Of a stretch of DNA of 33,664 nucleotides, positions 6,799-29,628 are shown one piece after another (position 1 is the first letter of the stretch; each line of letters begins with the position of its first letter). The position numbers and the translations under genes were made by a program. Under the pieces are notes generated by a model. The model worked only from the letters and a program-made list of their open reading frames with translations, did no database searches and had not been told where the DNA came from. The stretch is from contig QKHF01000302.1 in the NCBI GenBank assembly GCA_003250135.1, positions 1 through 33,664 of the forward strand, read 5' to 3'. This DNA comes from Paracoccaceae bacterium (lineage in GTDB: Bacteria > Pseudomonadota > Alphaproteobacteria > Rhodobacterales > Rhodobacteraceae).

Positions 6799-6889
6799 CC
6801 CGCAGGCGCCGTCAATCGCGCTTTCCACGCGCGGCGTGTTGCGGTTAGGAAATATCGTACGCGTATTAGTGACAGGGAACGCAATCAGG

Positions 6890-8853: not shown

Positions 8854-8951
8854 GCGTGATGACGGGTTTGGCGACCAGCCATCACTTGGGGAAGAGAACA
8901 GGGCGTAGCGCCGCTGGCTTTTGGGGGCGGCCGTCAAAATGGAGCTGAGAC

Positions 8952-9470: not shown

Positions 9471-9475
9471 CGAAC

Positions 9476-13005: not shown

Positions 13006-14889
13006 ATGGACCAACGCCTTCTGAAGCACCTGGAAGACGAGCTCGTCTACATCCGCGAGATGGGGGCCGAGTTCGCCCAATCCTATCCGAAGATCGCCTC
13101 GAGGCTGGGACTCGAGGGCATCGAATGCCTCGACCCGTATGTCGAGCGCCTGCTGGAGGGGTTCGCCTTCCTGTCGGCGCGCGTGCATCTGGAGCTGGAG
13201 CAGCAGTTCCCCGTCTTCACCCAGCACCTGCTTGAAATCATCTATCCCCACTACCTTTCGCCGATCCCGGCGATGGTCGTGGCCGAGTTCACGCCCGACA
13301 AGGCGCAGAGCAGCTTCGTCGATGGTCACAAGCTGCCGCGCGGCACGGTCATGCGCACGCCGCTGAAAGAGGGCGACCGCATTCCCTGCGAGTTCCGCCT
13401 GGCGCAGGATGTCACCTTCTGGCCGCTGCAGGTGCTGGACGCGGAGTATATCTCGGGCCGCGGCGCGGTGGTGGCCGCGGGCGTCGGCGAGGATGAGCGC
13501 GCGACGGCGGCGATCCGCATCCGCCTGGGCCGGGTCGGCGACGGAAACCTGTCGGAGATCAAGTGCGACCAGCTCGACCTTCTGGTGCACGGGTCCGAGC
13601 CCGCGCGCTGGCGCCTGCACGAGCAGATCGCCGGGTTCGGACTGGGCGTCATCGGCCGCTCGACCGACCGACGCAAGGACTGGAAGGTCTCGGCCAAGAA
13701 GCCCGCGATCGAAGACGTCGGCTATGATCCGGGCGAGGCCCTGCTGCCCTATCCCGGCGAGTCCTTCGACGGCTACCGCCTGCTGCAGGAATACTTCGCG
13801 ATCCCCGAGCGGTTTCTGTTCGTCCGCCTCTCAAATCTTCGGCGGATCTTCAAGAAGGCCGAGGGCAAGGAAGTCGACATCTTCATCCCGGTCTCGGACA
13901 ACCGGCCCGATCTGCGCCACTCGCTGGATGCGGACTGCTTCCGCCTGTTCACCGCGCCGGCGGTCAACCTGTTTCCCAAGCGCTGCGACCGCATCCACCT
14001 CAGCGGGCTGGACAACGAGCATCACGTCGTGCCCGACCGCACCGCGCCGATGGATTTCGAGGTCTACCGGATCACCAAGGTCACCGGCATCGGCGCCGAG
14101 GGGAAGGAGGACGTGCGGTTCCGCCCCTTCTACTCCACCGACGACCTGACTGCGGCGGGCGAGATCCATCCCGCCTACTACACCGTCAAGCGCCGGCCCC
14201 GCGTGCGGTCCGAGAAACAACGCCTGAAGGGCGCGCGCACCAACTATCTGGGCGGCGAGTGCTTCCTGTCGCTGGTCGACCGCTCGCAGGCCCCCTACTC
14301 CGAGTCGCTGAAGCAGCTGGCGGTGGAGTGCCTGGCCACCAATCGCGACCTGCCGATGCTGCTGGCCACGGGCACGGGCGACACCGATTTTCTGCTGCCC
14401 GAAGGCGGCCCGGTGAAGCAGATCCGCGCCATACACGGGCCGACCAAGCCGCGGCCCAGCCTCGCCTTCGACGGCGGCGCCGCCTGGCGGCTGATCAGCC
14501 ATCTCAGCCTCAACTACCTGTCGCTGACCGACAACGACGCCGAGCACGGCGCAGCCGCGTTGCGCGAGCTTCTGGCGATCTACGCCCCGATCGGCGGCTC
14601 GGCGGCGGGCAAGCAGCTTGAAGGCGTGCGCTCGGTCTCCACCCGCCCCATCGTGCGGCGGATTCGGGACAAGGCGCTGTCCACCGCCGTGCGCGGGCGC
14701 GAGGTGACGGTCACCTTCGACGAAAGCTTCTTCACCGGATCAAGCGCGTTTCTTCTGGGCGCGGTGCTCGACCGGTTCTTCGCCAAATACGTTTCGCTCA
14801 ACAGCTTCACCGAAACGGTGGTCCGGGATCAGCAGAGAGGGGAGATTTCGCGATGGCCAGCGCGGACCGGCCTTCGACAACTGCTCTGA
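13006..14889 (+). CDS. tssF: T6SS baseplate subunit TssF (ImpG/VasA)
   Basis: N-terminus LLKHLEDELVYIREMGAEFAQSYPKIASRL is the TssF hallmark. 627 aa. Confidence 0.95.
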   Translation: MDQRLLKHLEDELVYIREMGAEFAQSYPKIASRLGLEGIECLDPYVERLLEGFAFLSARVHLELEQQFPVFTQHLLEIIYPHYLSPIPAMVVAEFTPDKAQSSFVDGHKLPRGTVMRTPLKEGDRIPCEFRLAQDVTFWPLQVLDAEYISGRGAVVAAGVGEDERATAAIRIRLGRVGDGNLSEIKCDQLDLLVHGSEPARWRLHEQIAGFGLGVIGRSTDRRKDWKVSAKKPAIEDVGYDPGEALLPYPGESFDGYRLLQEYFAIPERFLFVRLSNLRRIFKKAEGKEVDIFIPVSDNRPDLRHSLDADCFRLFTAPAVNLFPKRCDRIHLSGLDNEHHVVPDRTAPMDFEVYRITKVTGIGAEGKEDVRFRPFYSTDDLTAAGEIHPAYYTVKRRPRVRSEKQRLKGARTNYLGGECFLSLVDRSQAPYSESLKQLAVECLATNRDLPMLLATGTGDTDFLLPEGGPVKQIRAIHGPTKPRPSLAFDGGAAWRLISHLSLNYLSLTDNDAEHGAAALRELLAIYAPIGGSAAGKQLEGVRSVSTRPIVRRIRDKALSTAVRGREVTVTFDESFFTGSSAFLLGAVLDRFFAKYVSLNSFTETVVRDQQRGEISRWPARTGLRQLL

Positions 14890-15893
14890 GCCGCCTCAAG
14901 GCGCTTGCGGCCGATCCCACCCGCTTCAACTTTCAGCGGGCGATGCGGATTTTGGACGCCGCGTTTCCGGGCCGTCCGCGCCTTGGCGAATCGAAGCGCC
15001 CAAAAGAGGACGCCGTGCGGCTGGGGCAGGAGGTCTCTCTGGCCTTTCCGACCTCCACCATCGCCGCGTTCAAGGAGGGGGAAGAGGGCAAGCCGGCCCG
15101 GCTGACCACCCGCTTCTTCGGCGTGTTCGGGCCCAATGGCCCGCTGCCCCTGCACCTGACCGAATACGCCCGCGAGCGTCAGCGCCATCACCGGGACGAC
15201 ACGCTGATCGCGTTCACGAACATCTTTCATCATCGGTTCCTGAGCCTTTTCTGGCGGGCCTGGTCCGCAGCCGACCCCGCCGCCTCGTTCGACCGGCCGG
15301 ATTCAGACCATTTCTCGGACGACGTCGCGGCGATCGCCGGGTACCGGGGCCAGGCGCTCGCGAACCGGGATGAGATGCCCGATCTGGCCAAGCGGCGTTT
15401 CGCCGGGCGGCTGGCGCACCACACGCGCAGCGAGGACGGGCTGCTGGCCATCGTGTCCTCGTTCTTCAACGCGCCGGTGGAGATTCAACCGTTCATCGGA
15501 TCGTGGCTGCGGCTGGAGCCGGAGGAGCACTGGCGGCTGGGAGATCGCGGAGTGAACGCGCGGCTGGGCCAGTCCACCAGTCTGGGCGCGCGGGTCTGGA
15601 CGCGGCAGGACAAGTTCCGCATTCGCATCGGCCCCATGAGCGTGGAAGAATACGAACGCCTTTTGCCGGGCGGCGACAGCCTGAAACGACTGGTCGCCAT
15701 CGTGCGAAACTATATCGGCGACGAACTGGACTGGGACGTAAATCTGGTCCTGAAAGAGATCGAGACGCCGCCCGCGCAGCTGGGCAAGGCCGGGCAGCTG
15801 GGCTGGACCACATGGATCGGCCAGCGACAGAAGCAGGACGCGTATGACCTGTATCTGTCGCCGCTGACCTCAGACAAAGTGACATACGGGTAG
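14853..15893 (+). CDS. tssG: T6SS baseplate subunit TssG (ImpH/VasB)
   Basis: FNFQRAMRILD near the N-terminus. 346 aa. Overlaps the tssF end by 37 nt. Confidence 0.92.
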   Translation: MASADRPSTTALSRLKALAADPTRFNFQRAMRILDAAFPGRPRLGESKRPKEDAVRLGQEVSLAFPTSTIAAFKEGEEGKPARLTTRFFGVFGPNGPLPLHLTEYARERQRHHRDDTLIAFTNIFHHRFLSLFWRAWSAADPAASFDRPDSDHFSDDVAAIAGYRGQALANRDEMPDLAKRRFAGRLAHHTRSEDGLLAIVSSFFNAPVEIQPFIGSWLRLEPEEHWRLGDRGVNARLGQSTSLGARVWTRQDKFRIRIGPMSVEEYERLLPGGDSLKRLVAIVRNYIGDELDWDVNLVLKEIETPPAQLGKAGQLGWTTWIGQRQKQDAYDLYLSPLTSDKVTYG

Positions 15894-15920: not shown

Positions 15921-18623
15921 ATGGCGGAAATCAGCAGAGTCGCGCTGTTCGGAAAGCTCAACAAGCTGGGCTATCAGGCGATCGAGGGGGCGACCGTGTT
16001 CTGCAAGATGCGGGGCAACCCCTATGTGGAGCTGGTGCACTGGCTGCAGCAGATCCTGCAGATGCAGGATAGCGACCTGATGCGGATCGTGCAGCACTTC
16101 GACCTGAACCCGTCGAAACTGGCCAAGGACGTGACCGAGTCGCTGGACCGGCTGCCGCGCGGTGCGACATCGATCTCCGATCTCTCCACCCATATTCAGG
16201 AAGCGGTGGAGCAAGGCTGGATCTACGCCAGCCTGTTGTATAATTCGAACCACATCCGCACCGGCCACCTGATGATCGGCCTGGTGAAGACGCCGTCTCT
16301 GAAGAACGCGCTCTACGCGATTTCCGGCGAATTCAAGAAGGTCAAGGCGGACGAGCTGTCCGACAATTTCGAGGACATCCTGGGCGATTCCGTCGAAGCG
16401 CGGCTGTCGCCGACGGACGGGTCCCAGGTTGGCGGCGGCGCCGTGCCGGGCGAGGCCTCGGGCGCGATGTCGCCGGCGCAGATGGGCAAGGAGGAGGCGC
16501 TGCAGCAGTTCTGCGTCGACCTCACCGAGAAGGCGCGCGAGGGCGATATCGACAATATCGTCGGCCGGGATGAGGAGATCCGCCAGATCGTCGACATCCT
16601 GATGCGGCGGCGGCAGAACAACCCGATCCTGACCGGCGAGGCGGGCGTGGGCAAGACGGCCGTCGTGGAGGGCTTCGCGCTGAGGATCGCCCGCGGCGAC
16701 GTGCCCCCCAGCCTGGCCGACGCGCGACTCCTGATGCTGGATGTGGGCCTGTTGCAGGCCGGCGCCTCGATGAAGGGCGAGTTTGAGAACCGCCTGCGCG
16801 CCGTGATCGACGAAGTTCAGGCGAGCGCCACCCCGATCATCCTGTTCGTGGATGAGACGCACACCCTGGTCGGCGCCGGCGGTCAGGCCGGCACCGGCGA
16901 CGCGGCCAACCTGCTGAAACCGGCCCTCGCCCGTGGCACGCTGCGCACCATCGGCGCGACGACCTGGGCCGAGTACAAGAAATACATCGAGAAGGACCCG
17001 GCGCTGACCCGCCGCTTCCAGGTGGTCAAGGTCGATGAGCCGGGCGAGGAGAAGGCGATCCTGATGATGCGCGGCATCGCCGGGATGCTGGAGAAGCACC
17101 ACAAGGTGCAGATCCTCGACGAAGCGCTGGACGCCGCCGTGCGCCTGTCGCACCGCTACATCCCCGCGCGCCAGCTGCCGGACAAGTCGGTCAGCCTGAT
17201 CGACACCGCCTGCGCCCGCGTCGCGATCAGCCAGCATGCGGTGCCGGCCGAGGTGGACGATTGCCGCCGCCGCATCCAGGCGCTGGAGACGGAGCTGGAG
17301 ATCATCGAGCGCGAGGAAAGCGCCGGCTACGACGTGGTCGAGCGCCGCGCGCAGGCCCAGACCCTGCTGGACGAGGAGAAGGAGCGCCTCGAAGGGCTGG
17401 AGGCGCGCTGGGCCGGCGAGAAGGAGATCGTGGAGAAGATCCTCGAAATCCGCGGCAAGCTGAGGAAGGGCGGCGCCTCGGTGGACGAGCCGGGCGCGGC
17501 CGAGGACACCGAGCATTCCGAGCTTTCGGAGGACGAGCGCGCGGCGCTGCTTGTGGAGTTGAAGGAGACGCAAGAGAAGCTGCACGAGGTGCAGGGCGAG
17601 ACGCCGCTGATCCTGCCCATCGTCGACGCGCAAGCCGTGGCGACCGTGGTCGGCGACTGGACTGGCATCCCGGTCGGCCGGATGATGAAGGACGAGATCT
17701 CGACAGTGCTCAGCCTTGCGGATCACCTGAACAAGCGGGTGATCGGGCAAGACCACGCGATGCACATGATCGCCAAGCGCATCCAGACCTCGCGCGCCGG
17801 GCTCGACAACCCGAACAAGCCGATCGGCGTGTTCATGCTCGCCGGCCCCTCGGGCGTCGGCAAGACCGAGACAGCGCTGGCGCTGGCCGAGGCGCTCTAT
17901 GGCGGCGAGCAGAACGTCGTCACCATCAACATGTCCGAGTATCAGGAGGCGCACACCGTCTCCTCGCTGAAAGGCGCGCCTCCGGGCTATGTCGGCTATG
18001 GCGAGGGCGGCGTTCTGACCGAGGCGGTGCGCCGCAAGCCCTACTCCGTCGTCCTTCTGGACGAGGTGGAGAAGGCGCACCCGGATGTGCACGAGATCTT
18101 CTTCCAGGTGTTCGACAAGGGCATCATGGAGGACGGCGAAGGCCGCCTGATCGATTTCAAGAACACGCTGATCCTGCTGACCTCGAACGTGGGTTCGGAG
18201 CTGATCATGGACATGTGCTCGGACCCCGAGTTGCTGCCTGAGCCGGAGGGAATCGCCAAGGCGCTGCGCGAGCCGCTGCTGAAAGTATTCCCGGCGGCGC
18301 TTCTGGGCCGGATCGTAACCATTCCTTACTACCCGCTCAGCGATCACATGATCGGCGAGATCTCCAAGCTGCAGCTTGGCCGCATCGTCAAACGCATCAA
18401 GGCCAATTACGGCATTCCGCTGACCTATGACGACTCGGTGATTCAGACCATTATCGACCGCTGTCAGGAACTGGAGTCCGGCGGGCGCATGATCGACGCC
18501 ATCCTGACCAACACCATGCTGCCCGCGATCTCGACCGAGTTCCTGCGCCGGACCATGGAGGGCGAGCCGATCGAGAAGGTCAACGTCACGATCAAGGACG
18601 GGGAATTCGCCTACGAATTCTGA
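15921..18623 (+). CDS. clpV: T6SS AAA+ ATPase ClpV (TssH)
   Basis: Clp N-domain, two Walker A motifs ([16 protein letters not shown]) and a coiled-coil middle domain. 900 aa. Confidence 0.96.
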
Positions 18624-18683
18624 GCGGCGCTTCAATTTGGCGCCGCCGCAGGGCGCCGCCTCGACCGACAGGGAGGATGACCA

Positions 18684-19919
18684 ATGGCGAAGACAAAGAC
18701 GACGACGCACAAGTTCTACGTTGTCGACCTGATCCGCAACAAACCCAAGTCGCAGTATATCGAGATCCCGAAATACCGGGTCGATGTCGAGATCGAGGTC
18801 ACGACCAAGGGCAAGCTTTCGGCCAAGGAAGTCCCGTCGGCCGCGATGGAGCGGCTCGAGAAGACCGCCCGGAAGACTCTGGACGAGTACGAGAAGGTCA
18901 TCACGGAAGAGGCCATCAAGCTCGACAAGAAGATCACCGACCTGATGAAGCAGCCTTCGAAAGCGGCTCAGCAGGAAGCGGAAAAGCTGATCCAGGGGAC
19001 CAACGCGTCGATCAAGAACGCGCTCGATTCAGCCGAAGGCGCGGCGCAGAAGTCGATCGAAGCGCGGCTGAAGAAGGAAGCGCAGGGCGACAAGAACCTG
19101 AAAGAGGCGCGGGTCCGCACCGGCCTGAAGGTGGGCAAGAGCGTGATCAAGATCGCCGGGTCCGTCGGCAAGCTGGTCGCCAGCGCGGGCGCCGATGTTT
19201 CGTCCTATCTCACGATCACCAAGGAACTGGTCAACCTCGGAAAGGAGCTTCAGCAGCAGCTCAAGAACGAGGAGAAGCTTCGCAGCGACCTGCAGAAGGG
19301 CGTCGAGGCCTATGTGGCTTTCCGGGGCGACGAGATCATGAGGGCCGCCAAGAAGATCGGCCTGACCGACACGAAGGGCATCGACTTCAAGAAACCGCGC
19401 GAGGCGATGAAGGTCGTCGCGGATCGGCTCGCCGAGGGCGGCGAGGTCGCAAAGAAGGAGTTTCAGGACCCGAAGTCCGGCCTGACCAAGCTCAAGAGCG
19501 TCGTGATCAGGGGCGTCAAGTCGAAGCTTGCGGACGCGAACAAGGCCCGCCAGAAGTACCGCGAGCACACCACCAAGACGCGGCAAAAGGTCGACTCCAT
19601 GTCCGCCTCCGCCGACAAGCTGCAAAAGGCGATGCGGAGCGCGAAGAACCTGAAAGAGGGCGTGAAGATCGGCGCCCAGTGCATGCAGGTCAAACACGGG
19701 GTCTCGGCCATGGCCAGCAAGCTGGACGACCGCGAGAAATTCCTCGACAGCATGCAGGATATCCTGTCCGAGGCGGGCATGGACATTGACGACCGCACGA
19801 CGCTCGACAAGCTGAAGGAACTGGACAAGAAGACGATCCTGACCGAAGGCAAGGACCTGCTGAAGTCGATCAAGACGGTCAAGGGCGCGATCGAGTCGGT
19901 CGCTTCGGCGGTCGTCTAG
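18684..19919 (+). CDS. Lys-rich, predicted mostly alpha-helical protein of unknown function (T6SS-embedded orphan)
   Basis: AGGGAGGA lies upstream of the ATG. Strong GC3 bias in this frame (AAG, GAG, GTC, ATC codons). 66 Lys in 411 aa by my count. A short beta-like N-terminus (HKFYVVDLI ... YRVDVEIEVTT) is followed by long amphipathic helical sequence. No family recognised. Confidence 0.75.
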   Translation: MAKTKTTTHKFYVVDLIRNKPKSQYIEIPKYRVDVEIEVTTKGKLSAKEVPSAAMERLEKTARKTLDEYEKVITEEAIKLDKKITDLMKQPSKAAQQEAEKLIQGTNASIKNALDSAEGAAQKSIEARLKKEAQGDKNLKEARVRTGLKVGKSVIKIAGSVGKLVASAGADVSSYLTITKELVNLGKELQQQLKNEEKLRSDLQKGVEAYVAFRGDEIMRAAKKIGLTDTKGIDFKKPREAMKVVADRLAEGGEVAKKEFQDPKSGLTKLKSVVIRGVKSKLADANKARQKYREHTTKTRQKVDSMSASADKLQKAMRSAKNLKEGVKIGAQCMQVKHGVSAMASKLDDREKFLDSMQDILSEAGMDIDDRTTLDKLKELDKKTILTEGKDLLKSIKTVKGAIESVASAVV

Positions 19920-20013
19920 GATTGATGCCGGCGCCTCGTCCGCGACTCAAAGCCATCGCTGGGAACGGGTGATGCGCGCGGCGGCGATAAGACGATAGAC
20001 TGCGCGGCGCCCC

Positions 20014-20964
20014 GTGGCGCGGCGCGACAAGATGAGACGAATGACGATGCCCGATTCTGAATCCATAATGAAGGCGCTGACGCCCAAGGGGCTGTCAACG
20101 ATCACCGACACCGAAAGCGTGATGGAGACGTCTCCGGAGGATCACAGCCTGCGCGCCAGGGCGCGGCGTCTGGTCGAGCTCGAAACGTTCAAGAACGTGA
20201 TCATGGTGGTCATCATCATCAGCGCGGTCGCGATCGGGCTGGGAACGGCGCCGTCGATACAGGAGAAGTTTGGCCCCGCGCTTGAACTTCTGGACACGAT
20301 CGTCATCGTGATCTTCGTCGTCGAGCTCGGACTGAAGCTGTTCGGTTACGGCTGGAATTTCTTCAAGTCCGGCTGGAACATTTTCGACCTCGTGATCGTG
20401 ATCATATCTCTGGCGCCGGCCGATGAAAGCCTGAAGGCCCTGCGGACCCTGCGTATCCTGCGGGCGATGCGAATCCTCTCGATCGTGCCGCAGATGCGCA
20501 AGGTCGTGGTGGCGCTGCTGACCGCCCTGCCCGGCATGGCCTCGGTGATCATCGTCCTCGGCATCGTCTTCTACATCTTCGCCGTGATCACGACCCGACT
20601 CTATGGCGAAGCCTTTCAGGACTGGTTCGGAACCGTCGGCCTTTCGCTCTACTCGCTGTTCCAGATCATGACGCTGGAAAGCTGGTCCATGGGCATTGTG
20701 CGTCCGGTGATGGAGGAATTTCCCTACGCCTGGGTGGTGTTCGTGCCCTTCATCATGGTCACGACCTTCGCGGTGGTGAACCTGTTCGTCGGTCTGCTGG
20801 TCAACACGATGCAGGAGGCGGTCGAAGAGGAAAAGGACGCCGAAATCGAGAAGCTGCGCGAACTTGTGCGGGGGGAGAACGCCGCCGTCAGCGCGCAGAT
20901 CACAGAATTACGCAAGCTGGTCCTGGAGCTGCGGGCCTCCGCCCAAAACGACCGGCAAAGTTGA
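20014..20964 (+). CDS. Voltage-gated sodium channel, BacNaV/NaChBac family
   Basis: Six hydrophobic segments. S4 is LRTLRILRAMRIL with four Arg at every third position (about 20431-20502). Pore filter is FQIMTLESWSMGIVRPV (TLESWSM at 20671-20691). C-terminal coiled-coil-like EKLRELV...ITELRKLVLELRA. Start is ambiguous: GTG 20014, or ATG at 20032, 20041, 20047 or 20068. Confidence 0.88.
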   Translation: MARRDKMRRMTMPDSESIMKALTPKGLSTITDTESVMETSPEDHSLRARARRLVELETFKNVIMVVIIISAVAIGLGTAPSIQEKFGPALELLDTIVIVIFVVELGLKLFGYGWNFFKSGWNIFDLVIVIISLAPADESLKALRTLRILRAMRILSIVPQMRKVVVALLTALPGMASVIIVLGIVFYIFAVITTRLYGEAFQDWFGTVGLSLYSLFQIMTLESWSMGIVRPVMEEFPYAWVVFVPFIMVTTFAVVNLFVGLLVNTMQEAVEEEKDAEIEKLRELVRGENAAVSAQITELRKLVLELRASAQNDRQS

Positions 20965-21016
20965 GACCTGATACTCCCGCAAGGCCGTCGCCCCCGACGG
21001 AGATAGGAGCCAAGCC

Positions 21017-22885
21017 GTGAGCGACACCGAGTTCGCACCCAATTTCGGAACCCTCAACGCCCCTGAGCCCGAGCGACGCCCGGACGGGAAGGGCCGCAAG
21101 CGCCTGGCGATTCTGGGTGATTTCTCCGGCCGCGCCACCCGCGGCGAGCTGGAGATCGGCGACGGGCTGGCCAACCGCAAGCCGCTGAAGCTGGACGTCG
21201 ACACGATGGAGCAGCTTCTGCAGCGGCTCGAGGTCAAGGTCCAGTTGCCGATCGGCGCGGACGACTCGGTGATCGAGGTCGAGATCAGCGAGATCGAGTC
21301 CTTCCATCCGGACGAGCTGTACGAGGAGCTGGAGCTGTTCTCGGAACTGGCCGGGCTGCGCCAGCAGCTGAAGAACTCCAGCACCTTCGACCGGGCCGCC
21401 GCCACGGTGCGCGGCTGGGCCGAGGAGGCCGGCGAGAAGCCCAAGCGGAAGAAGAAGCCCAAGGCGGCCGCGGTTGCAGTCGGCGCCCGGCTGTCCGACT
21501 TCGAAAAGCTGATGGGCCAGCGCGTGACCGCCAGCCATGAAGAGGCCGATATCGACAGTCTTCTGGCCAATATCGTCGGCCCGCATATCGTCGCCGCGCC
21601 GGACCCGGAACAGTCGACGATGATTGCGGCGGTCGACGCCGCCCTGTCGGACGCCATGCTCCGCGTGCTGCATCATCCCGACTTCCAGACGGTGGAGGCC
21701 GCGTGGCGGTCCGCCGACCTGCTGACCCGGCGGGTGGAGACCGACGCCGAGCTGCAGCTGGTGATGTACGACGTCTCGGTCGAGGAATTCACCGCCGATC
21801 TCGCCGCGCAGGACGAGCTGAGCGAGAGCGGGCTCTACAAGATGCTGGTTGAGAACCCGGCGCTCGACGAGGATCAGGGCCCCTTGAGCGCGATCTTCGG
21901 GCTCTACGAGTTCGATGAAACCCCGCCCCATGCGGAATTGCTCAGCCGCATCGGCAAGATCGCCCAGCAGGCGCACGCGCCCTTCGTCGCCTCGATGTCG
22001 GCCAATGCGCTGAAGACCGACTGGGATGACCACCATGTGCTGATCCGCGACACCTGGAAGGCGCTGAAGAAATCGCCGGAGGCGGCCTATATCGGCCTCG
22101 CCAGCCCGCGCTTCCTGCTGCGCCACCCCTACGGCGCGAAGTCCGAGCCGGTGGACCCGTTCGATTTCGAGGAGTTCTCCCGCCGCGAAGGCGTCAAGGG
22201 CATGCTGTGGGCGAACCCCGCCGTGCTGGCCTGCGTGATGCTGGCCAAGACCCTGAAGGAGGGCAAGCGCCTCGGCCAGATCATGACCATGGGCGACGTT
22301 CCCTATCACGTGATGGAGGACGAATACGGCGACCAGATCGCCCTGCCGACCACGGAGCGGCTGCTGAACGCGAAGACCGCGCAGAAGCTGGCCAAGCGCG
22401 GCTACATGCCGGTGCTGTCGATCAAGGGCCGCAACGAGGTTCGGCTCGGCTCGTTCCAGTCGCTCAAGGGCAAGCCGATCGCCGGCTTCTGGTCCGGCGC
22501 GCCGATCCCGATCGAGGCGGAGGAGCCCGAGGTCGAGGTGATGATGGTCGCCGGCAAGGCGCCCGAACGGGTCAAGGTCGAAGAGGAGGAAGAGGACGTC
22601 ACGCCCGGTTTCGAAGACGACGATGACGATCTCGATCTTGACCTCGATCTCGACTTCGATCTGGACGATGACAGCGAGGCTGAGGAGTCCGACGGCGACG
22701 ACGACCTGGACCTCGATCTCGACTTCGATCTCGACGACCTGGGCGGCGACGATGACGCCGGCGATGACGACGATGGGATGGACGAGTTGGACGCCCTTCT
22801 GGCCGATCTCGGCGGCGACGACGACGAGGACGACGAAGACGAGGACCTCGACGCCGATCTGGACGCCCTGCTGGCCGATCTTTGA
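21017..22885 (+). CDS. Single-chain TssB-TssC sheath-like paralog, C-terminally truncated, with polyacidic tail
   Basis: GTG follows TAGGAG. Residues about 25-125 align by eye with TssB (LAILGDFSGR ... LKLDVDTMEQLL ... IESFHPDELY). Residues about 165-500 align with TssC (HHPDFQTVEAAWRSADLL, ASPRFLLRHPYG, PVDPFDFEEF). The TssC C-terminal region is absent. The last 101 aa contain 58 Asp/Glu and no Lys/Arg/His. Confidence 0.8.
   Translation: MSDTEFAPNFGTLNAPEPERRPDGKGRKRLAILGDFSGRATRGELEIGDGLANRKPLKLDVDTMEQLLQRLEVKVQLPIGADDSVIEVEISEIESFHPDELYEELELFSELAGLRQQLKNSSTFDRAAATVRGWAEEAGEKPKRKKKPKAAAVAVGARLSDFEKLMGQRVTASHEEADIDSLLANIVGPHIVAAPDPEQSTMIAAVDAALSDAMLRVLHHPDFQTVEAAWRSADLLTRRVETDAELQLVMYDVSVEEFTADLAAQDELSESGLYKMLVENPALDEDQGPLSAIFGLYEFDETPPHAELLSRIGKIAQQAHAPFVASMSANALKTDWDDHHVLIRDTWKALKKSPEAAYIGLASPRFLLRHPYGAKSEPVDPFDFEEFSRREGVKGMLWANPAVLACVMLAKTLKEGKRLGQIMTMGDVPYHVMEDEYGDQIALPTTERLLNAKTAQKLAKRGYMPVLSIKGRNEVRLGSFQSLKGKPIAGFWSGAPIPIEAEEPEVEVMMVAGKAPERVKVEEEEEDVTPGFEDDDDDLDLDLDLDFDLDDDSEAEESDGDDDLDLDLDFDLDDLGGDDDAGDDDDGMDELDALLADLGGDDDEDDEDEDLDADLDALLADL
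22640..22881 (+). repeat. Intragenic direct repeats encoding the acidic tail
   Basis: A 29-nt unit, gacctcgatctcgacttcgatctSgacga, occurs at 22640-22668 and 22709-22737 (28/29 identical, 69 nt apart, in frame; DLDLDFDLDD). A 20-nt unit, gacgccctKctggccgatct, occurs at 22790-22809 and 22862-22881 (19/20, 72 nt apart; DALLADL). Confidence 0.85.
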
Positions 22886-22893
22886 TGCGCGCA

Positions 22894-22915
22894 GGCCGCG
22901 CCGGCAGGCGCGGCC
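22894..22915 (+). terminator. Strong GC hairpin between the sheath-like gene and vgrG
   Basis: GGCCGCGCC-ggca-GGCGCGGCC is a 9-bp stem with a 4-nt loop, followed by CTTGTTG. This is a weak U-tract, so a partial terminator or processing site at best. Confidence 0.35.
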
Positions 22916-22938
22916 CTTGTTGAGACGGGAGGCGCTGA

Positions 22939-25074
22939 ATGCCGGATCTTGCTCTTGAGAACAGGAAATACAAGCTGGAGACCGGCGCCTCGCAGGACCT
23001 GTTCGTGGTCCACATGGTGCGCGAGGAATCGTTCAACTCGCTCTACACGCTCACCTTCGTCGTCGTCGCCGACGAGCACGTCGCGGCCAGCGAGATCGTC
23101 GGGCACGACGCGAAGATGTGGCTGGAGTCCGAGGCGCACGGCAAGACCTGGTATGGCGGCATCTGCACCGACTGCTCCTATGAGGGAATGATCGGCCAGC
23201 TGCATGTCTATCGCCTGATCGTCAGGCCCGAGTTGTGGCTGCTGACCCAGCGCCGCAACCATCGGATTTTCCAGGACGAGCTGGCGATGGACATCGTCGA
23301 CCAGGTGGTCCGCGACGCCGGCATCGACGTGGCGACCCGCAAGGGCGGCGAGTTTCCATCGACCGAGATGCAGGGCGACGACCCACATTCGAAGTTCGAG
23401 CATTGCGTCCAGTACGGCGAGACGGATTTCAACTTCGTCCAGCGCCTGATGGCCGAGGAAGGCATCTTCTACTATTTCGACCACAAGGACCCCAAGCCCG
23501 AGCTGATCGCCGGGCGGGTCAGCAGCGGTCTGGACCAGATCGCCGGCGACACGCTGACCTTCCAGAAGACCGAGACCATCGCCTCGCTGGATGGCGAGCG
23601 GATCTTCGTCTGGCGCTCCAGCCATCTGGTGCGGTCCGAGAAGGCGACTCTGAACGACTACAACCACCAGAACCCGACCGCGGACCTGAAAGTCTCCAAG
23701 GTCATCGAGAACAACAAGAAGTCGGGCTCGGAGCTGGAGCTGTACGACTATCCCGGACGCTATCGCGTCTCCGGGCGCGGCGACGATCTGGTCAAGAACC
23801 GGATGGAGGCGTTCGACGAGCCGACCTCTACCTGGGAAGGCAAAAGCAACATTCCGATCATGGTCGCAGGGCGGCACTTCCAAATGAAGGAGCACCCGGT
23901 CGACGCCTTCAACAACACGTCGTTTCTGATCACCCATTGCAAGCACGTGCTGCGCGCCGAGATGGACCTGATCCAGTCGATCATCTCTAACGGCGCGATG
24001 ACCGACGTTTTCGACGACAAGGAGGAGGCGCTGGCGGGCGTGCAGGCCCAAGGCGGCGACGCCGCTCCGACAGGCGGCGCCATCGACGGCTTTTCATGCG
24101 AATTCCGAGCGCAGGAACTGACCACCCCCTACCGCCCGCCGCAGGACACGCCGAAGCCCATCGCCTATAGCACCGAACCGGCGCTGGTGGTGGGCGACGA
24201 GGAAGAAAAGCCCCACGTGGACGAGTTCGGCCGCATCAAGTGCCATTTCTTCTGGGACCGCGACAGCCAGAAGGACGACACGTCGAGCGCCTGGATCCGG
24301 GTCATGCAGCCGGGCTTCGCCGATGCGCGCTGGGGCCAGCAGTTCATCCCGAGGGTCGGGCAGGAGGTGGTGGTCGCCTTCCAACGCGGCGATCCCGACC
24401 GGCCGATCGTCATCGGCGCGATGTATCACAAGGATTTCAAGCCGCCATACAAGCTGCCCGACAACAAGAGTCAGAGCGGCATCAAGACCAAGTCGCTGTC
24501 GGGCGCCGGCTATCACGAGCTTCTGTTCGACGACAAGGAGAACGAGGAGTACGTGCGCCTGCAGTCCCAGAAGGACTTCCACTTCATCGTCAAGAACAAG
24601 TGGCTGACTTCGATCGGATATGAAGAGATCGACAATCGCGGCATCGACGAAGCGACGCACGCGCCCAGCGATCCGGCCGCCGCGACCGGCGGCAGCGTGA
24701 CGGGCGGCGGCGACGACGGCGACTGCGCTATGAAGATCAAGAACAACTACAATGTCGAGGTCGACCAGGGCGACAACAACTTCAAGGTCTCGACCGGCAA
24801 CCAGAACACCGACGTCGCGACCGACCGCAAGACAACGGTGGGCGGCAACCACGAAGAGACGATCAGCGGCACTCAGGACATCACCATCACGGGGGCGTGC
24901 ACGATCACCTCGAACGCCAGCATCGAGCTGATCGTGGGGGCGTCCTCGATCAAGCTGGAGCCGGCCAAGATCACCATCAGCTCGACCGCGTTCGAGGTGA
25001 AAGGCACGGCGAGCGGCACGGTGGACGGCGGCCTGTCGCTGACCGTCAAGGCCGCGACGGTGAACATCAACTAG
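22939..25074 (+). CDS. vgrG: T6SS spike protein VgrG (TssI), no C-terminal effector domain
   Basis: gp27-like N-terminal half, the gp5 OB region with GQEVVVAFQRGDPDRPIVIGAMYH, then a beta-helix repeat tail ending ATVNIN. 711 aa. Confidence 0.95.
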   Translation: MPDLALENRKYKLETGASQDLFVVHMVREESFNSLYTLTFVVVADEHVAASEIVGHDAKMWLESEAHGKTWYGGICTDCSYEGMIGQLHVYRLIVRPELWLLTQRRNHRIFQDELAMDIVDQVVRDAGIDVATRKGGEFPSTEMQGDDPHSKFEHCVQYGETDFNFVQRLMAEEGIFYYFDHKDPKPELIAGRVSSGLDQIAGDTLTFQKTETIASLDGERIFVWRSSHLVRSEKATLNDYNHQNPTADLKVSKVIENNKKSGSELELYDYPGRYRVSGRGDDLVKNRMEAFDEPTSTWEGKSNIPIMVAGRHFQMKEHPVDAFNNTSFLITHCKHVLRAEMDLIQSIISNGAMTDVFDDKEEALAGVQAQGGDAAPTGGAIDGFSCEFRAQELTTPYRPPQDTPKPIAYSTEPALVVGDEEEKPHVDEFGRIKCHFFWDRDSQKDDTSSAWIRVMQPGFADARWGQQFIPRVGQEVVVAFQRGDPDRPIVIGAMYHKDFKPPYKLPDNKSQSGIKTKSLSGAGYHELLFDDKENEEYVRLQSQKDFHFIVKNKWLTSIGYEEIDNRGIDEATHAPSDPAAATGGSVTGGGDDGDCAMKIKNNYNVEVDQGDNNFKVSTGNQNTDVATDRKTTVGGNHEETISGTQDITITGACTITSNASIELIVGASSIKLEPAKITISSTAFEVKGTASGTVDGGLSLTVKAATVNIN

Positions 25075-25083
25075 GCGGATGCC

Positions 25084-25725
25084 ATGAGCGACGACAAGAA
25101 ATTCGCCGATCTGAAGAAGCTCTCGCCGGAGCCGCTGGCCGAGATCCTGACCCGCGCGACCGTGCGGCTGAAGACCAAGGTCAACCTGCCGCGCGAGGCG
25201 CCTGCGGCCGACTACCTGCCGCTGCTCGAGAAGGCCGAGGCGCCGCTCGACCTACTGATGGCGCTGGCGTACGCCCTACCCGCGCGAGAGGCGGTCTGGT
25301 GGTCGTGCCTCGCCACCCGGCATGACATGGACAAGGAGGAAGCCGACGCCTCGCACCCGATCAAGGCGGCGGAGAACTGGGTGTTCCAGCCCGGCGAAAA
25401 AAACAAGAAGATCGCCGACAAGGTGTTCAAGCGCGCCGCGGGCGACGACCCGGCCAAACTCTGCGTCATGGCCGCGCTTTATGGAGACGGCAAGGTGGAT
25501 TTGGGCGACGACCAGCAGATCGACGCGCCGCCCTATGTCAGCCAGGGCTGCGCTTACAGCGCCATCGTCGGCGCCGCCAGCCGAGCCGAGGAAGGCCTGC
25601 TGGAGCGCGCCGCCCTGCTGATCGAACAGGGGCTCGACATCGCTCGCGGCGGCAACGGCAAGATTGAGAAACCCGGCGGCGCGTCGGCGGATGGCGCTGG
25701 CGCAGCGGGGGGCGGGAATGCATAA
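25084..25725 (+). CDS. Hypothetical protein between vgrG and PAAR (candidate adaptor or cargo)
   Basis: 213-aa GC3-rich ORF starting 10 nt after the vgrG stop. Contains REAVWWSCLATRH and a Gly/Ala-rich C-terminus. No family recognised. Confidence 0.65.
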   Translation: MSDDKKFADLKKLSPEPLAEILTRATVRLKTKVNLPREAPAADYLPLLEKAEAPLDLLMALAYALPAREAVWWSCLATRHDMDKEEADASHPIKAAENWVFQPGEKNKKIADKVFKRAAGDDPAKLCVMAALYGDGKVDLGDDQQIDAPPYVSQGCAYSAIVGAASRAEEGLLERAALLIEQGLDIARGGNGKIEKPGGASADGAGAAGGGNA

Positions 25726-25782: not shown

Positions 25783-26091
25783 ATGCCTCCAGCAGCCCGA
25801 TTGACGGACATGCACGCATGCCCGATGCAGACCCCGACCCCGGCCGGGCCGGTGCCGCATGTGGGCATGCCGATCATTCCGCCAGACGCGCCGACGGTGA
25901 TGATCTGCATGATCCCCGCGGCGCGGGTCAGCGACATGGGCGTCTGCACGGCGCCGGTGCCGAACGATCCGATCGTCAAGGGCAGCACCAGCGTTTTCAT
26001 CTGCAAGATGCCGGCGGCCCGCATCGGGGATTCCACGGCCCATGGCGGAACGGTCACCGCGGGCGCGCCCACGGTCAACATCGGCGGCTGA
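25783..26091 (+). CDS. PAAR-domain protein (spike-sharpening cone, no extension)
   Basis: Three PAAR motifs: PPAARLTD, IPAARVSD and MPAARIGD. 102 aa. Confidence 0.92.
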   Translation: MPPAARLTDMHACPMQTPTPAGPVPHVGMPIIPPDAPTVMICMIPAARVSDMGVCTAPVPNDPIVKGSTSVFICKMPAARIGDSTAHGGTVTAGAPTVNIGG

Positions 26092-26109: not shown

Positions 26110-27789
26110 ATGAGTCTGTCTCTTGTGATCCAGGGTTCCGGCGCCGCGCCGCAGGGCGTGCCGGAGCGCGCCCAGTTGAGCGGCGGCACGCTGACGCTCG
26201 GCCGCGGCGCGGAGAACGACCTCGTACTGCCCGACCCGGAGCGCCGCCTGTCGAAGCGCCATTGCGTGATCGAGGAACGGAACGGCGTCTACGTGCTGGT
26301 CGACATCTCGACCAACGGCACATTCCTGAATTTCGGCGGAGAGGCCGTCGCAGGGGAAAGTCCGCCGCTGGGCGACGGCGACATCATCACCTTGGGACCC
26401 TACGAGTTCCGTGTGGAGATCGCCGATACCGGCGCGCCCGTCAGAAGTTCCGACCCGTTCGGGGACCTGCCGCCGCCGCTGGAGGACGCGCCGATGTCGC
26501 CCGGCCCCCGGGGCGGCGAGGACTTCGTCGGCCGACTGGACGATCCCGGCGCCTCGCTGAACGAGGGGAGCGAAGACATTCTCGCCCCGTTCGGCGACGC
26601 TCCGAAGGGGAATCTTGCGGGGGCCGACCCGTTCGCCTCGCCCGATGCGGACAGCGTGCTGCCCGACGACGATTCCTTCCTGCGCGATCTGGGCGCGCTG
26701 GGGCCTGCGCCGGACGATGGCCACTCGGGCGCCTCGATCGGCGACCACGGCCGGGCCGAGACGGACGTGTTCGAAACCGCGGCGACCAACCGCGTCACCA
26801 TCCCCGACGACTGGGATCTCGACGCGCCCGACGATGCGGGAGGCGGCGATCCGTTCGCTCCGCCCCCGCAGCAACCCGCGCCGCCACAGCCGACGCAGGC
26901 CCCCGCTGCGCCGCCTCCTTCCTCGCCGCCCTCGACCGATCCGTTCGCCGAGGAGGAGGACGATCTTCTGGCCCCTGCGCCGGAACCGTCTCAGCCCGCG
27001 CCGCCGCCGCAATCGCCGGCCTCACCTCCACCCGAAGCGCCGGGCGCCGATCCGTTCGCGGAAGAGGACGACCTGGAGCCGCTTGCGCCGGCCGAAGCCG
27101 CGCCGCCGCCGCAGCCTGAGCCCCAGCCGGCGCCGCCGCCTCAACCCGCCGCGCCGCCACCCCAGGCCGCAGCGCCCGCAGCGCCTGTCTCGGGCGACGC
27201 GGCGCGCGCGTTTATCGAAGCCGCGGGGTTGGGCCCGGACGCCATTCGCGACGAGGAGCTGGAGGAGGTCATGCGCCGCTCCGGCGCCGCGTTCCGGGCG
27301 ATGGTCGAGGGGCTGCGCGAGGTGCTGATGACCCGCTCGTCGATCAAGGGCGAGTTCCGCATGAACCAGACGATGATCCAGTCCGGCGGCAATAACCCGC
27401 TGAAGTTCTCGATCTCTGGCGAGCACGCGGTCAAGGCGCTGCTGAAGCCGGACGTCACCGGCTATCTGCCGGCGGACGTGGCGGTCAAGCAGGGCCTCGA
27501 CGACGTCAAGGCGCATGAGGTCGCCATGGTGACCGGCATGCAGGCCGCGCTGGAAGCGCTGATCAAGCGGTTCGATCCGGAGCGGCTGGAGAAGCGCATG
27601 GCCAAGTCGGCCAGCGGCATCGGCGCGGTGTTCCGCGGCGGCAAGAAGGCGACCTACTGGGACGCCTTCACCCAACTCTATGAAGACATCGCCACCGAGG
27701 CCGAGGACGATTTCCAGGCCTTGTTCGGCAAAGCTTTCGCCAAAGCCTATGAAGACCAACTCCGGTCGCTTGAAGGAGAGAAAAAATGA
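26110..27789 (+). CDS. tagH: T6SS-associated FHA-domain protein TagH (Fha/ImpI)
   Basis: N-terminal FHA (LGRGAENDLVLPDPERRLSKRHCVIEERNGVYVLVDISTNGTFLN). A long Pro/Asp-rich linker. A conserved TagH C-terminal domain (MTRSSIKGEFRMNQTMIQSGGNNPLKF). Confidence 0.92.
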   Translation: MSLSLVIQGSGAAPQGVPERAQLSGGTLTLGRGAENDLVLPDPERRLSKRHCVIEERNGVYVLVDISTNGTFLNFGGEAVAGESPPLGDGDIITLGPYEFRVEIADTGAPVRSSDPFGDLPPPLEDAPMSPGPRGGEDFVGRLDDPGASLNEGSEDILAPFGDAPKGNLAGADPFASPDADSVLPDDDSFLRDLGALGPAPDDGHSGASIGDHGRAETDVFETAATNRVTIPDDWDLDAPDDAGGGDPFAPPPQQPAPPQPTQAPAAPPPSSPPSTDPFAEEEDDLLAPAPEPSQPAPPPQSPASPPPEAPGADPFAEEDDLEPLAPAEAAPPPQPEPQPAPPPQPAAPPPQAAAPAAPVSGDAARAFIEAAGLGPDAIRDEELEEVMRRSGAAFRAMVEGLREVLMTRSSIKGEFRMNQTMIQSGGNNPLKFSISGEHAVKALLKPDVTGYLPADVAVKQGLDDVKAHEVAMVTGMQAALEALIKRFDPERLEKRMAKSASGIGAVFRGGKKATYWDAFTQLYEDIATEAEDDFQALFGKAFAKAYEDQLRSLEGEKK

Positions 27790-28250
27790 CCATTCTGCGC
27801 AGACGATTCCTCGGCCTCACCGGCGCGGCCGTCGCCGCCGCGGCGCTTTCGGCCTGCGGCGCTCCGCCGCCGCCGCCGCCGACTGACGTCGCGCTCAGCA
27901 TCGCGGGCGGGTCCGACATGAACAACGCCCGCCCGGCGCAGGTGAAAGTCTATTACCTGACCAGCAAGGCGGCGTTCGATGGCGGCGATTTCTTCGCCCT
28001 GTTCGACACGCCTGAAGCCACTCTGGGGACGGACCTGATGGCCGTGGACGCCTATCTGCTGCAGCCCGGCTCGGCCATCGCCGACGCCAAGAGCTTCAAG
28101 CAGGCGCCCAGCCATGTCGGCGTGATCGTCGCGTTCCAGAGCGTCGACCAGCCGGGCTGGAAGGCGGTCAAGCCGCTGGCGCCGAACACGGTCAATACGG
28201 TTGCCGCGTCCGTTTCGGGCATGCTTGTGAGCCTCGCCGTCAGCCAATAA
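27786..28250 (+). CDS. tssJ: T6SS outer-membrane lipoprotein TssJ
   Basis: ATGA overlap with the tagH stop. Signal peptide with lipobox LSAC. VKVYYLTSKAAFDGGDFFALFD is typical of TssJ/SciN. Confidence 0.9.
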   Translation: MTILRRRFLGLTGAAVAAAALSACGAPPPPPPTDVALSIAGGSDMNNARPAQVKVYYLTSKAAFDGGDFFALFDTPEATLGTDLMAVDAYLLQPGSAIADAKSFKQAPSHVGVIVAFQSVDQPGWKAVKPLAPNTVNTVAASVSGMLVSLAVSQ

Positions 28251-28287: not shown

Positions 28288-29628
28288 GTGTCCTGGGAAA
28301 ACCGCATCGTCTGGAGCGAGGGGCTGTTCCTGCAGCCCCAGCACTTCCAGCAGCAGGACCGCTATCTCGAAGCGCTGGTCCACGGGACCACGGGCGCCGT
28401 CGCGCCCTACCCCTGGGGCTTCACCAAGCTGACCATCGACGAGGAGATGCTGACGCTGGGCAAGTTCGGCGTCTCGGAGTGCGCCGGCGTGATGCCCGAC
28501 GGCACGCCTTTCAGCGCGCCGCATCGTGACGACCCGCCCCCGGCGATCGAGCCGCCGGAGGACGTGAAAAACTGCACCGTCTACCTGACCCTTCCTGTGC
28601 GCCACGCCGGCGCGCGGGAGTTCGAGCTGTCCAACAACGACGAATCCGTGGCGCGGTTCCAGGGGACCGAATTCACGGTTCACGACACCGTCAGCGACGG
28701 CGGGCAGGCGGTGACGCTGGCGGTCGGCCGGCTCCGCATGCGGTTCATGCTGGAGATGGACGAACGCGCCGACATGCTGTGCATTCCCGTGGCCAAGATC
28801 GTCGAGGTGCAGTCGGACAAGCAGATCGTGCTGGACCGCAGCTTCGCGCCCACGTCGATGGACACCCGCGCCGCGCCCGCTCTGCACAAGTTCGTCGGCG
28901 AGATCGAAGGCCTGCTCAGCCACCGGGCCGAGGCGCTGGGCGGACGGCTGTCGGAATCCGGCGCGACCAAGGGCGTCGCCGAGATTCAGGACTTTCTGCT
29001 GCTGATGGTCGTGAACCGGATGCATGCGATGATCCGGCATCTGCGCACGATCCCCAACGCCCATCCGGCGACGATCTACGGCTTCCTGATCTCGCTGGCG
29101 GGCGAACTGGCCACTTTCATGGCGGCCACCAAGCGCCCGCCTGAATTCCCGGTCTACAAGCATGACGACCTGACGGGCACGTTCCAGCCGGTGATGCGCA
29201 CGCTCCGGCAGTACCTGTCGGCGGTGCTGGAGCAGACCGCGATCTCGATCCCGATCGAGCCGCGCAAATACGGTGTTTACGTCGCAGTCATCGCGGACAA
29301 GAGGCTGGTCACCACCGCCAGCTTCGTGCTGGCGGTCAAGGCGGAGACCCCGGTGGAGACGATCCGGCGGCACTTCCCGACGCAGGCCAAGCTGGGTCCG
29401 GTGGAGCAGATCCGCCAGCTGGTGAACTCGGCGCTGCCGGGCATCACGCTCAGGCCGCTTCCCGTGGCGCCGCGACAAATCCCCTATCATGCGGGGGTGG
29501 TGTATTTTGAGATGGACCCGGACAGTCAGTTCTGGCGACAGTTGACCACCTCGGGCGGCCTGGCCGTCCATGTGGCCGGAGACTATCCCGGACTTGAGAT
29601 GGAGCTTTGGGCCATTCGCAAAGCCTGA
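28288..29628 (+). CDS. tssK: T6SS baseplate subunit TssK (ImpJ/VasE)
   Basis: N-terminus VWSEGLFLQPQHFQQQDRYLE is the TssK hallmark. GTG start follows AGAGGGGGA. Confidence 0.95.
   Translation: MSWENRIVWSEGLFLQPQHFQQQDRYLEALVHGTTGAVAPYPWGFTKLTIDEEMLTLGKFGVSECAGVMPDGTPFSAPHRDDPPPAIEPPEDVKNCTVYLTLPVRHAGAREFELSNNDESVARFQGTEFTVHDTVSDGGQAVTLAVGRLRMRFMLEMDERADMLCIPVAKIVEVQSDKQIVLDRSFAPTSMDTRAAPALHKFVGEIEGLLSHRAEALGGRLSESGATKGVAEIQDFLLLMVVNRMHAMIRHLRTIPNAHPATIYGFLISLAGELATFMAATKRPPEFPVYKHDDLTGTFQPVMRTLRQYLSAVLEQTAISIPIEPRKYGVYVAVIADKRLVTTASFVLAVKAETPVETIRRHFPTQAKLGPVEQIRQLVNSALPGITLRPLPVAPRQIPYHAGVVYFEMDPDSQFWRQLTTSGGLAVHVAGDYPGLEMELWAIRKA

Follow-up and report, generated by a model that had tools for sequence, protein, structure and literature searches.

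The window analysed here, 33,664 nucleotides of DNA from a Paracoccaceae bacterium (GenBank assembly GCA_003250135.1, contig QKHF01000302.1, positions 1 to 33,664), carries a type VI secretion system (T6SS) gene cluster in which three co-directional genes on the + strand, referred to as P1, P2 and P3, lie between clpV and vgrG. The conserved unit among them is the pair formed by P2, which encodes a voltage-gated sodium channel of the BacNaV family, and P3, which encodes a fused TssB'-TssC' protein of the TssCL family; this pair, part of an accessory module typical of Rhodobacterales, is conserved across marine members of the order. P1 is a separate, exchangeable protein that occupies a variable slot after clpV, and the core unit does not depend on it. 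An earlier note on this DNA, made from the sequence alone, had placed three such genes at this site and had taken the middle one for a BacNaV channel and the last one for a fused TssB-TssC-like protein with an acidic tail. The open reading frames were confirmed on the + strand, and both assignments were upheld by the domain matches and residue signatures described below.

A sodium channel gene paired with tssCL

The P2 open reading frame extends over positions 20014-20964 of the + strand when read from a GTG at 20014. Its likely start is the ATG at 20047, which gives a protein of 305 aa and agrees with the called gene P0241. Judged by its domain, selectivity filter and voltage sensor, P2 is a canonical BacNaV, for which a tetrameric assembly and a Na+ current are predicted. 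Pfam Ion_trans (PF00520) matched residues 59-273 with an E value of 6.7e-43, as a single domain of six transmembrane segments. The best relative in the PDB was 5hvx (E 5.5e-75), and 4ekw/3rvy scored about 2e-69, all as full-length matches; we take 5hvx to be NavMs and 4ekw/3rvy to be NavAb. NaChBac is the founding member of this family. Besides the Ion_trans domain, P2 shares with these channels four S4 arginines at every third position (LRTLRILRAMRILS), the selectivity filter TLESWSM (FQIMTLESWSMGIV) and a helical C-terminal region. The S4 arginines are conserved in 16/16 T6SS-linked homologues, and the filter is invariant across the same set. What sets P2 apart from known BacNaVs is that it is encoded within a T6SS operon, directly 5' of tssCL.

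The survey covered 100 loci, taken from collections of genomes, plasmids and metagenomes. Ninety-eight sources (97 loci and the window) were annotated by iterative hidden Markov model (HMM) searches, and L098-L100 were checked separately. The genome-collection scan, run with a single-protein query, yielded two close relatives, and the wider context came from metagenomes, plasmids and contig look-ups. A channel gene directly 5' of tssCL, on the same strand and inside a T6SS cluster, was found in 16 distinct loci (the window, L001-L003, L006, L008, L010, L012, L013, L015, L084, L089 and L094-L097). Among the named hosts are Leisingera, Qingshengfaniella, Limibaculum, Paralimibaculum, Pseudooceanicola batsensis HTCC2597, Defluviimonas (Albidovulum), Heliomarina and two metagenome-assembled genomes of Paracoccaceae. 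In P. batsensis (L094) the called channel gene, ending at 7858, and tssCL, starting at 7855, even overlap by 4 nt.

When channel homologues were sampled blind at 55-59 % identity, all four lay directly 5' of tssCL, and none of three homologues at 42-49 % identity, on plasmids of Skermanella, Peteryoungia and Microvirga, was linked to a T6SS. The T6SS-linked BacNaVs also share a C-terminal segment, E(F/I)ExLRxLVRxE, which is absent from the three relatives without T6SS linkage (L090-L092), and the filter of the unlinked L092 reads TFDDWSG. Our literature search found no paper that links BacNaVs to the T6SS or to other secretion systems. Some T6SS-linked BacNaVs (P0247, P0257, P0258 and P0262, 416-425 aa; L095 7001-8266) carry an extra N-terminal domain resembling a voltage sensor, and these two-sensor channels keep the same position 5' of tssCL. 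A neighbour-joining tree of TssCL cores left out the long forms of the protein and is not informative on a single gain of the channel.

Ratios of nonsynonymous to synonymous substitution rates (dN/dS) were obtained by comparing the window with its relatives L001 and L002. The channel gave 0.13-0.20, and P3 gave 0.105-0.108 (0.09 for its core and 0.12 for its tail). Values for the flanking genes were 0.07-0.10 for clpV and 0.33-0.39 for vgrG. The channel and tssCL are thus under purifying selection comparable in strength to that on clpV, and both are maintained as functional genes. The G+C content at third codon positions of P1, P2 and P3 (0.84-0.89) is like that of the neighbouring genes, which argues that the three genes are not a recent foreign insertion.

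The fused sheath-like protein and its tail

P3, or tssCL (21017-22885, + strand), encodes 622 aa with a net charge of -81. It consists of a core, residues 1-493 (21017-22495, + strand), with Pfam matches to VipA and VipB, and a tail, residues 494-622 (22496-22885, + strand), which is 50 % Asp/Glu and predicted to be disordered. The VipA match (residues 30-120; 30.4 bits, cut-off 24) covers profile positions 30-122 of 155. The N-terminal segment of TssB is therefore missing, and the segment QKFIARNRAPRVQIEYDVE of the window's own TssB has no counterpart in P3; in H1-type systems it is this TssB segment that TagJ binds. The VipB N-domain was matched by residues 201-483 with an E value of 3.5e-47. 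Pfam did not find the C-terminal VipB_2 domain (gpW/gp25-like) in P3, whereas the TssC encoded in the window has it (2.7e-45). P3 is thus neither a canonical TssC, defined by VipB_2, nor a canonical TssB, defined by a full VipA domain. P3 matched TssC1 in the PDB (5n8n_B) with an E value of 3.4e-36, and the confident AlphaFold2 model of its core retrieved TssC chains in Foldseek (E 1e-11), with TssB chains scoring weakly. An alignment of 18 family members contains many invariant columns. Since the C-terminal domain of TssC, which according to PMC3597794 is needed for tubule formation by HsiC1, is missing from P3, TssCL probably cannot build a sheath by itself.

The family was named TssCL by Suria et al. 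(2022, Front Microbiol), without an assigned function (PMC9515649), and our literature search met the name in no other paper. These authors described an architecture of a VipA, a weak VipA and a VipB domain, with 1,684 aa in Leisingera sp. ANG-M7, and found TssCL in 20 of 28 roseobacter genomes having an H1-like cluster (PMC9515649). Their paper is silent on the adjacent channel, on the slot proteins and on the terminal motif described below, and it reports the family from Alphaproteobacteria only. We found at least 823 matches to the P3 family, and where flanks exist they nearly always place the gene within a T6SS cluster. Among the matches are a copy labelled Pirellulales (P0108), 52 % identical to P3, and distant tail-less members in metagenomes. 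The earlier note's statement that none of the three genes encodes a recognised Tss or Tag component is therefore only partly right, since P3 belongs to this already named family. Its proposal of an undescribed accessory sub-system is supported in part: linkage of the channel and tssCL in 16 loci and the dN/dS values fit it, but the fused sheath protein had been described in 2022.

P3 agrees with the roseobacter TssCL in its position between tssH/clpV and vgrG, in its H1-like cluster with separate tssB and tssC, and in its VipA'+VipB fusion without VipB_2. Its core (residues 3-494) is 49-50 % identical to the plasmid copies from Leisingera. P3 differs from these in being short (622 vs 1,684 aa); it has no counterpart of their first VipA domain, the TssB-identical one, or of their long region of acidic repeats. 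With its one weak VipA match and its length of 622 aa, P3 is thus a short form of TssCL, and as such it resembles the Tateyamaria 'second tssC' reported in PMC9515649. Long relatives score above 318 bits for TssB. The extra TssB domain of the long Leisingera TssCL is 86 % identical to the TssB of the same cluster (PMC9515649), a near-identity that points to genuine contact with the sheath.

We also considered whether P3 is TssC40/ImpD (Atu4340), a second TssC paralogue that is essential for Hcp secretion in Agrobacterium (PMC3702570). Both are second TssC-like genes in a TagJ-containing alphaproteobacterial T6SS cluster. However, the TssC40-type gene at L088 (10355-11743) has VipB plus VipB_2, no TssB part and no tail, and it sits between tssC and tagJ. 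With this different domain set and only 25 % identity to the TssC40 type, compared with 30 % to canonical TssC, P3 was rejected as a TssC40.

The tail of P3 ends in two short amphipathic helices predicted by AlphaFold2 (residues 587-598 and 613-621), which bear the motifs MDELDALLADL and DLDALLADL-COOH. Forty-five members of the family share this terminal pair, including those whose tail is rich in Pro and Ala and not acidic. In its general form it reads LDALLA(S/G/D)(L/F), a linker commonly of about 15-25 residues, and then (M)D(P)ELAALLxxL-COOH. A second group of TssCL proteins, L050-L083, has no tail.

The cluster in the window is TagJ-class (H1-like): it encodes TagJ/ImpE and Fha, and its TssC has an EFASLL-type N-terminus, SDFAALLEKEF. 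The EFASLL and LLDEII classes of TssC N-termini were defined by Forster et al. (2014), who found EFASLL in P. aeruginosa HsiC1 and binding of LLDEII to the ClpV N-domain, and the TssC motif classes co-evolve with ClpV and TagJ (PMC4239648). Where a cluster encodes a tailed TssCL, the pattern [DE][LF][ADES][AS]LL lay within the first 60 residues of its TssC (9/9 proteins); where TssCL is tail-less, it was found in 0/8 TssC proteins, and LLDQIV stands instead. Elsewhere in the loci, the pattern occurred 9 times in 1.03 million residues of open reading frames, a background of 8.7e-6 per residue. At the level of this motif, the TssCL tail copies the EFASLL-type helix that the TssC of the same cluster carries at its N-terminus. 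The closest known counterpart is the TssC N-terminal helix with the ClpV-TagJ recycling interface (PMC4239648, PMC5048182): the tail sequences DLDALLADL and DPELAALLEGL match the EFASLL class of this helix, which occurs in TagJ-type systems. In TssCL, however, the motif lies at the C-terminus and in two copies, or up to 19 in long forms.

The tail-less TssCL proteins of L050-L083, all from metagenome loci, have 512-547 aa and 34-39 % identity. Their clusters pair an LLDQIV-type TssC with TagJ, a combination considered rare in PMC4239648.

The variable slot and the surrounding cluster

P1 (18684-19919, + strand) encodes a lysine-rich, helical protein of 411 aa (16 % Lys, isoelectric point (pI) 9.67, net charge +25). 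Its AlphaFold2 model (mean local confidence score, pLDDT, 68) shows a beta-hairpin at the N-terminus and long helices. At about residues 143-190, a segment modelled with low confidence, lies a conserved hairpin of moderate hydrophobicity. P1 belongs to no family in Pfam or NCBIfam. It is not the orphan that the earlier note saw in it: we found at least 145 homologues of 405-411 aa with 47-86 % identity. The superfamily is small; a search of 1.84 billion representatives gave 171 clusters. Among the relatives are proteins of 520-720 aa with an N-terminal extension, in which a Pfam search found no domain, and one relative has a Sec-type signal peptide. Four of four distant relatives (P0478, P0431, P0441 and P0455) carry a GADVxAY-like segment in the hydrophobic hairpin.

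The earlier note had asked whether the three genes co-occur as a trio and always lie in T6SS loci. The channel and tssCL are closely linked, both to each other and to T6SS clusters, but the trio is not a unit. In the closest relative, L001, whose ClpV and P3 are 93 % and 88 % identical to those of the window, P1 is missing; in L002 it is replaced by PB, an unrelated lysine-rich protein. P1 also adjoins tssCL in three loci that have no channel gene beside it (L004, L019 and L087), and it occurs outside any T6SS context in L085 and L086 (an Aquabacterium genome and a Planctomycetota genome).

The PB family, absent from the window, comprises fast-evolving proteins of 312-359 aa with a pI of 9.0-9.8 and an invariant K-W pair. 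Examples lie at L002 7733-8812, L003 8093-9040, L012 5628-6566, L089 5030-5980 and L094 5960-6967. PB was found solely directly 5' of a T6SS-linked channel gene, in 10 of the 16 channel loci. Remote homology of P1 and PB was rejected (hhalign probability 0.9 %), and the slot proteins of L098-L100 match neither the P1 nor the PB HMM. Both slot families are basic. On electrostatic grounds it is plausible that P1 may bind the acidic TssCL, a partnership hinted at in the earlier note, but the core unit can do without such a pairing, as L001, L095 and L097 have it and no slot protein.

A leader of about 110 nt immediately 5' of the channel gene (19920-20046, + strand) emerged from an alignment of the window with L001 (8950-9072) and L002 (about 8950-9065). 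It is kept whichever gene precedes it: P1 in the window, clpV in L001 and PB in L002. Thus, P1 is an insertion or deletion beside a fixed channel-tssCL unit. An internal promoter or regulatory site that serves the two genes may lie within the leader; a single weak sigma-70-like site was seen in this region (20041-20069), which is no more than expected by chance, and an Rfam search of the three-gene block including the leader returned no RNA family.

The two GC-rich hairpins that the earlier note had drawn around the block are real, as judged by folding. One lies on the + strand 3' of the clpV stop codon (18624-18646; GCGGCGC-N9-GCGCCGC) and the other in the gap between tssCL and vgrG (22894-22915, + strand; GGCCGCGCC-GGCA-GGCGCGGCC). 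The intergenic stretches holding them fold at -24 kcal/mol on the clpV side and -30.3 kcal/mol on the vgrG side (22883-22938). A role as intrinsic terminators is not supported, as neither is followed by a T-run and a terminator scan flagged neither. The hairpin on the clpV side is not kept in L001 or L002. In most relatives the gap between tssCL and vgrG holds a gene for a small acidic protein of 88-104 aa (pI about 4.2-4.9; for example L003 11896-12201, L004 12751-13050 and L089 10501-10788). This protein has no Pfam family, and neither the window nor L001 or L002 encodes it.

According to Pfam annotation, the window carries a complete T6SS cluster of the TagJ class. Its genes follow in the order tssA (7795-8853), tssB (8952-9470), tssC (9467-10963), hcp (11035-11550), tagJ/impE (11684-12496; ImpE, E 1.2e-43), tssE (12369-12986), tssF (13006-14889), tssG (14853-15893) and clpV (15921-18623). 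After P1, P2 and P3 come vgrG (22939-25074), a DUF6931 gene (25084-25725), a PAAR gene (25783-26091), tagH/fha (26110-27789; FHA and T6SS_FHA_C), tssJ (27786-28250; PF12790, 7e-20), tssK (28288-29628) and tssL (29675-31039). The tssM gene presumably lies 3' of tssL, as it does in relatives. A tssJ gene is present here and in L003, L004 and L098-L100, although PMC9515649 reports roseobacter T6SS1 clusters without it.

Directly 5' of tssA are genes for an adenylate/guanylate cyclase with a CHASE2 sensor (4762-6798) and for a SapC-family protein (6749-7660), a pair that could serve as a cyclic-nucleotide input to the T6SS cluster. A few kb 5' of the cluster, a gene for a lytic transglycosylase with an SLT domain is encoded on the - strand (1395-2357), and MaoC-dehydratase and CMD-family genes (480-1371) mark the edge of unrelated metabolism.

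Candidate roles for the channel and TssCL

We favour the reading that TssCL acts at the interface of the sheath with ClpV and TagJ through its TssC-like helices and that the channel links this action to membrane potential or Na+ influx. We regard it as likelier than any single rival, while giving it somewhat less than an even chance. The TssCL tail would engage whatever partner reads the TssC helix on the sheath surface, with ClpV and TagJ, the sheath-recycling proteins, as the obvious candidates, and TssCL would thereby tune assembly or disassembly of the sheath. In the long forms, the genuine TssB domain would contribute at the same interface. A channel in the inner membrane beside the apparatus would make the action of TssCL responsive to depolarisation or Na+ entry, such as might accompany an attack on the envelope. 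T6SS dynamics would then receive a fast electrical input, alongside the Fha-based input of the threonine-phosphorylation type that tagH suggests.

In the P. aeruginosa H1-T6SS, the threonine-phosphorylation sensing pathway is TagQRST-PpkA-Fha1-PppA. The channel would be a functional analogue of this pathway, providing a membrane-perturbation input to the same class of T6SS, but by means of a voltage-gated channel instead of an outer-membrane/periplasmic relay and a kinase. Fha is encoded in the window, and one relative has genes for a kinase, a PP2C phosphatase and TagF.

Several points weigh against this reading. Most TssCL-family genes, including all of the distant members, have no channel nearby, and A. 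pusense, Cohaesibacter, Rhizobium halophytocola and Rhodospirillum have long TssCL proteins but no channel with them. It follows that TssCL works without the channel, and the latter could be an addition confined to one lineage and of little effect. The interactions proposed among the channel, TssCL, ClpV, TagJ and P1 are inferred, as is the physiological role, and the reading does not explain how a cytoplasmic protein would sense the entry of Na+. Furthermore, the N-terminal helix of HsiC1 was dispensable for ClpV1 binding in two-hybrid assays in the P. aeruginosa system (PMC4239648). Finally, the motif pattern was defined after both sets of TssC proteins had been seen, and its comparison is one between two clades, so that the association amounts to about one evolutionary event. 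Marine habitat as the reason for having a channel was also considered, and this idea is weakened by the marine Cohaesibacter with its long TssCL and no channel.

A bolder proposal, which we consider possible but doubtful, is that the BacNaV clade has been recruited as a dedicated T6SS component, in which case depolarisation, for instance upon an incoming attack or on cell contact, would open the channel and, via the sheath mimic TssCL and its tail resembling the TssC helix, trigger or reset sheath assembly or recycling.

Alternatively, P1, PB and the other slot proteins might be cargo or effectors that the T6SS secretes, perhaps pore-formers of the alpha-helical kind. The region would then be in part an effector cassette and not a regulatory module, with TssCL and the channel serving in loading or in self-protection. 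P1 may share with the ClyA-family alpha-pore-forming toxins (MakB, AhlB, XaxB, Hbl) a bundle of long helices with a hydrophobic hairpin at its centre, and the hairpin segment is conserved in the P1 family with a GADVxAY hallmark. ClyA-family toxins also appear, scattered and low-ranking, among the Foldseek matches of P1. The HMM of the MakB pore-forming toxin gave weak matches, with an E value of 0.06 for P1 itself (12.7 bits, far from the cut-off of 240, so that P1 does not qualify as a ClyA-family match) and hits to three of the 26 members of its family, the best at E 0.003. The hypervariability of the slot between close relatives, the homologues of P1 outside T6SS clusters and the Sec signal peptide of one distant relative point in the same direction.

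Unlike those toxins, however, P1 is lysine-rich and basic, has no partner subunits nearby and shows no significant match in sequence or fold: a PDB sequence search with P1 gave nothing significant, a PDB profile search was empty, and Foldseek gave no PDB match at E <= 0.001 (best 4.7e-3, TM score <= 0.26). Its hydrophobic peak is low, with a maximum 19-residue Kyte-Doolittle hydropathy of 1.19. The neighbours of P1 are clpV and the channel gene; we found no open reading frame for a small membrane protein or an immunity-like protein beside it. P1 is neither linked nor fused to VgrG, PAAR, Hcp or an adaptor, and two genes separate it from vgrG. P1 is also highly conserved, with a mean column identity of 65 % in its family, unlike many effectors, and the channel and tssCL persist in the three loci where the slot is empty. 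Taken with these points, an effector role for the slot proteins appears unlikely.

We judge equally unlikely that TssCL is a structural variant of the sheath, co-polymerising with TssB and TssC as was suggested when the protein was named (PMC9515649), with the channel as an unrelated passenger inherited with the operon. The full TssB domain of long TssCL proteins, nearly identical to the cluster's TssB (PMC9515649; P0091), is what this idea would predict, and it accommodates the many tssCL genes without a channel and the fact that BacNaVs are common in Rhodobacterales generally. Yet P3 has neither a full TssB domain nor the TssC C-terminal domain, which makes co-polymerisation unlikely for P3 itself. 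A mere passenger is also hard to reconcile with the position, orientation and tight spacing of the channel gene, which are kept even though the TssCL cores are only about 50 % identical, or with the low dN/dS of a channel whose filter and sensor are intact. The restriction of PB to the position directly upstream of the channel suggests that a larger set of genes is inherited together.

That P3 is a decaying, functionless tssB-tssC duplicate and the module evolutionary debris is highly improbable: the domain losses relative to TssB and TssC and the weak TssB-like score would fit, but the selection and conservation data contradict it, with at least 823 homologues and many invariant residues, low dN/dS in core and tail alike, a conserved terminal motif and a confidently modelled core.

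In conclusion, the link between the channel and tssCL, the P1 and PB slot families, the short and tail-less forms of TssCL, its wider distribution and the mimicry of the TssC motif are new in the literature that we searched. The record of TssCL is corrected accordingly: the family includes short, tail-only and tail-less forms, is spread far more widely than reported, and in Rhodobacterales has a channel alongside. The mimicry of the TssC helix in the TssCL tail offers a new way to approach how TagJ-class systems recycle the sheath, an interface that is poorly understood. To our knowledge, BacNaVs are structurally among the best-studied ion channels, while their role in the bacteria that host them is largely unknown. 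A BacNaV clade inside T6SS operons provides a genetically testable hypothesis for what bacterial sodium channels do, and it makes membrane voltage or Na+ a candidate new input to the T6SS. That a voltage-gated Na+ channel should be conserved in a T6SS operon will surprise specialists of both fields. If the bolder proposal of a BacNaV clade recruited as a T6SS component is true, a contractile injection machine would have an electrical trigger, and BacNaVs would gain their first defined physiological role in marine bacteria.

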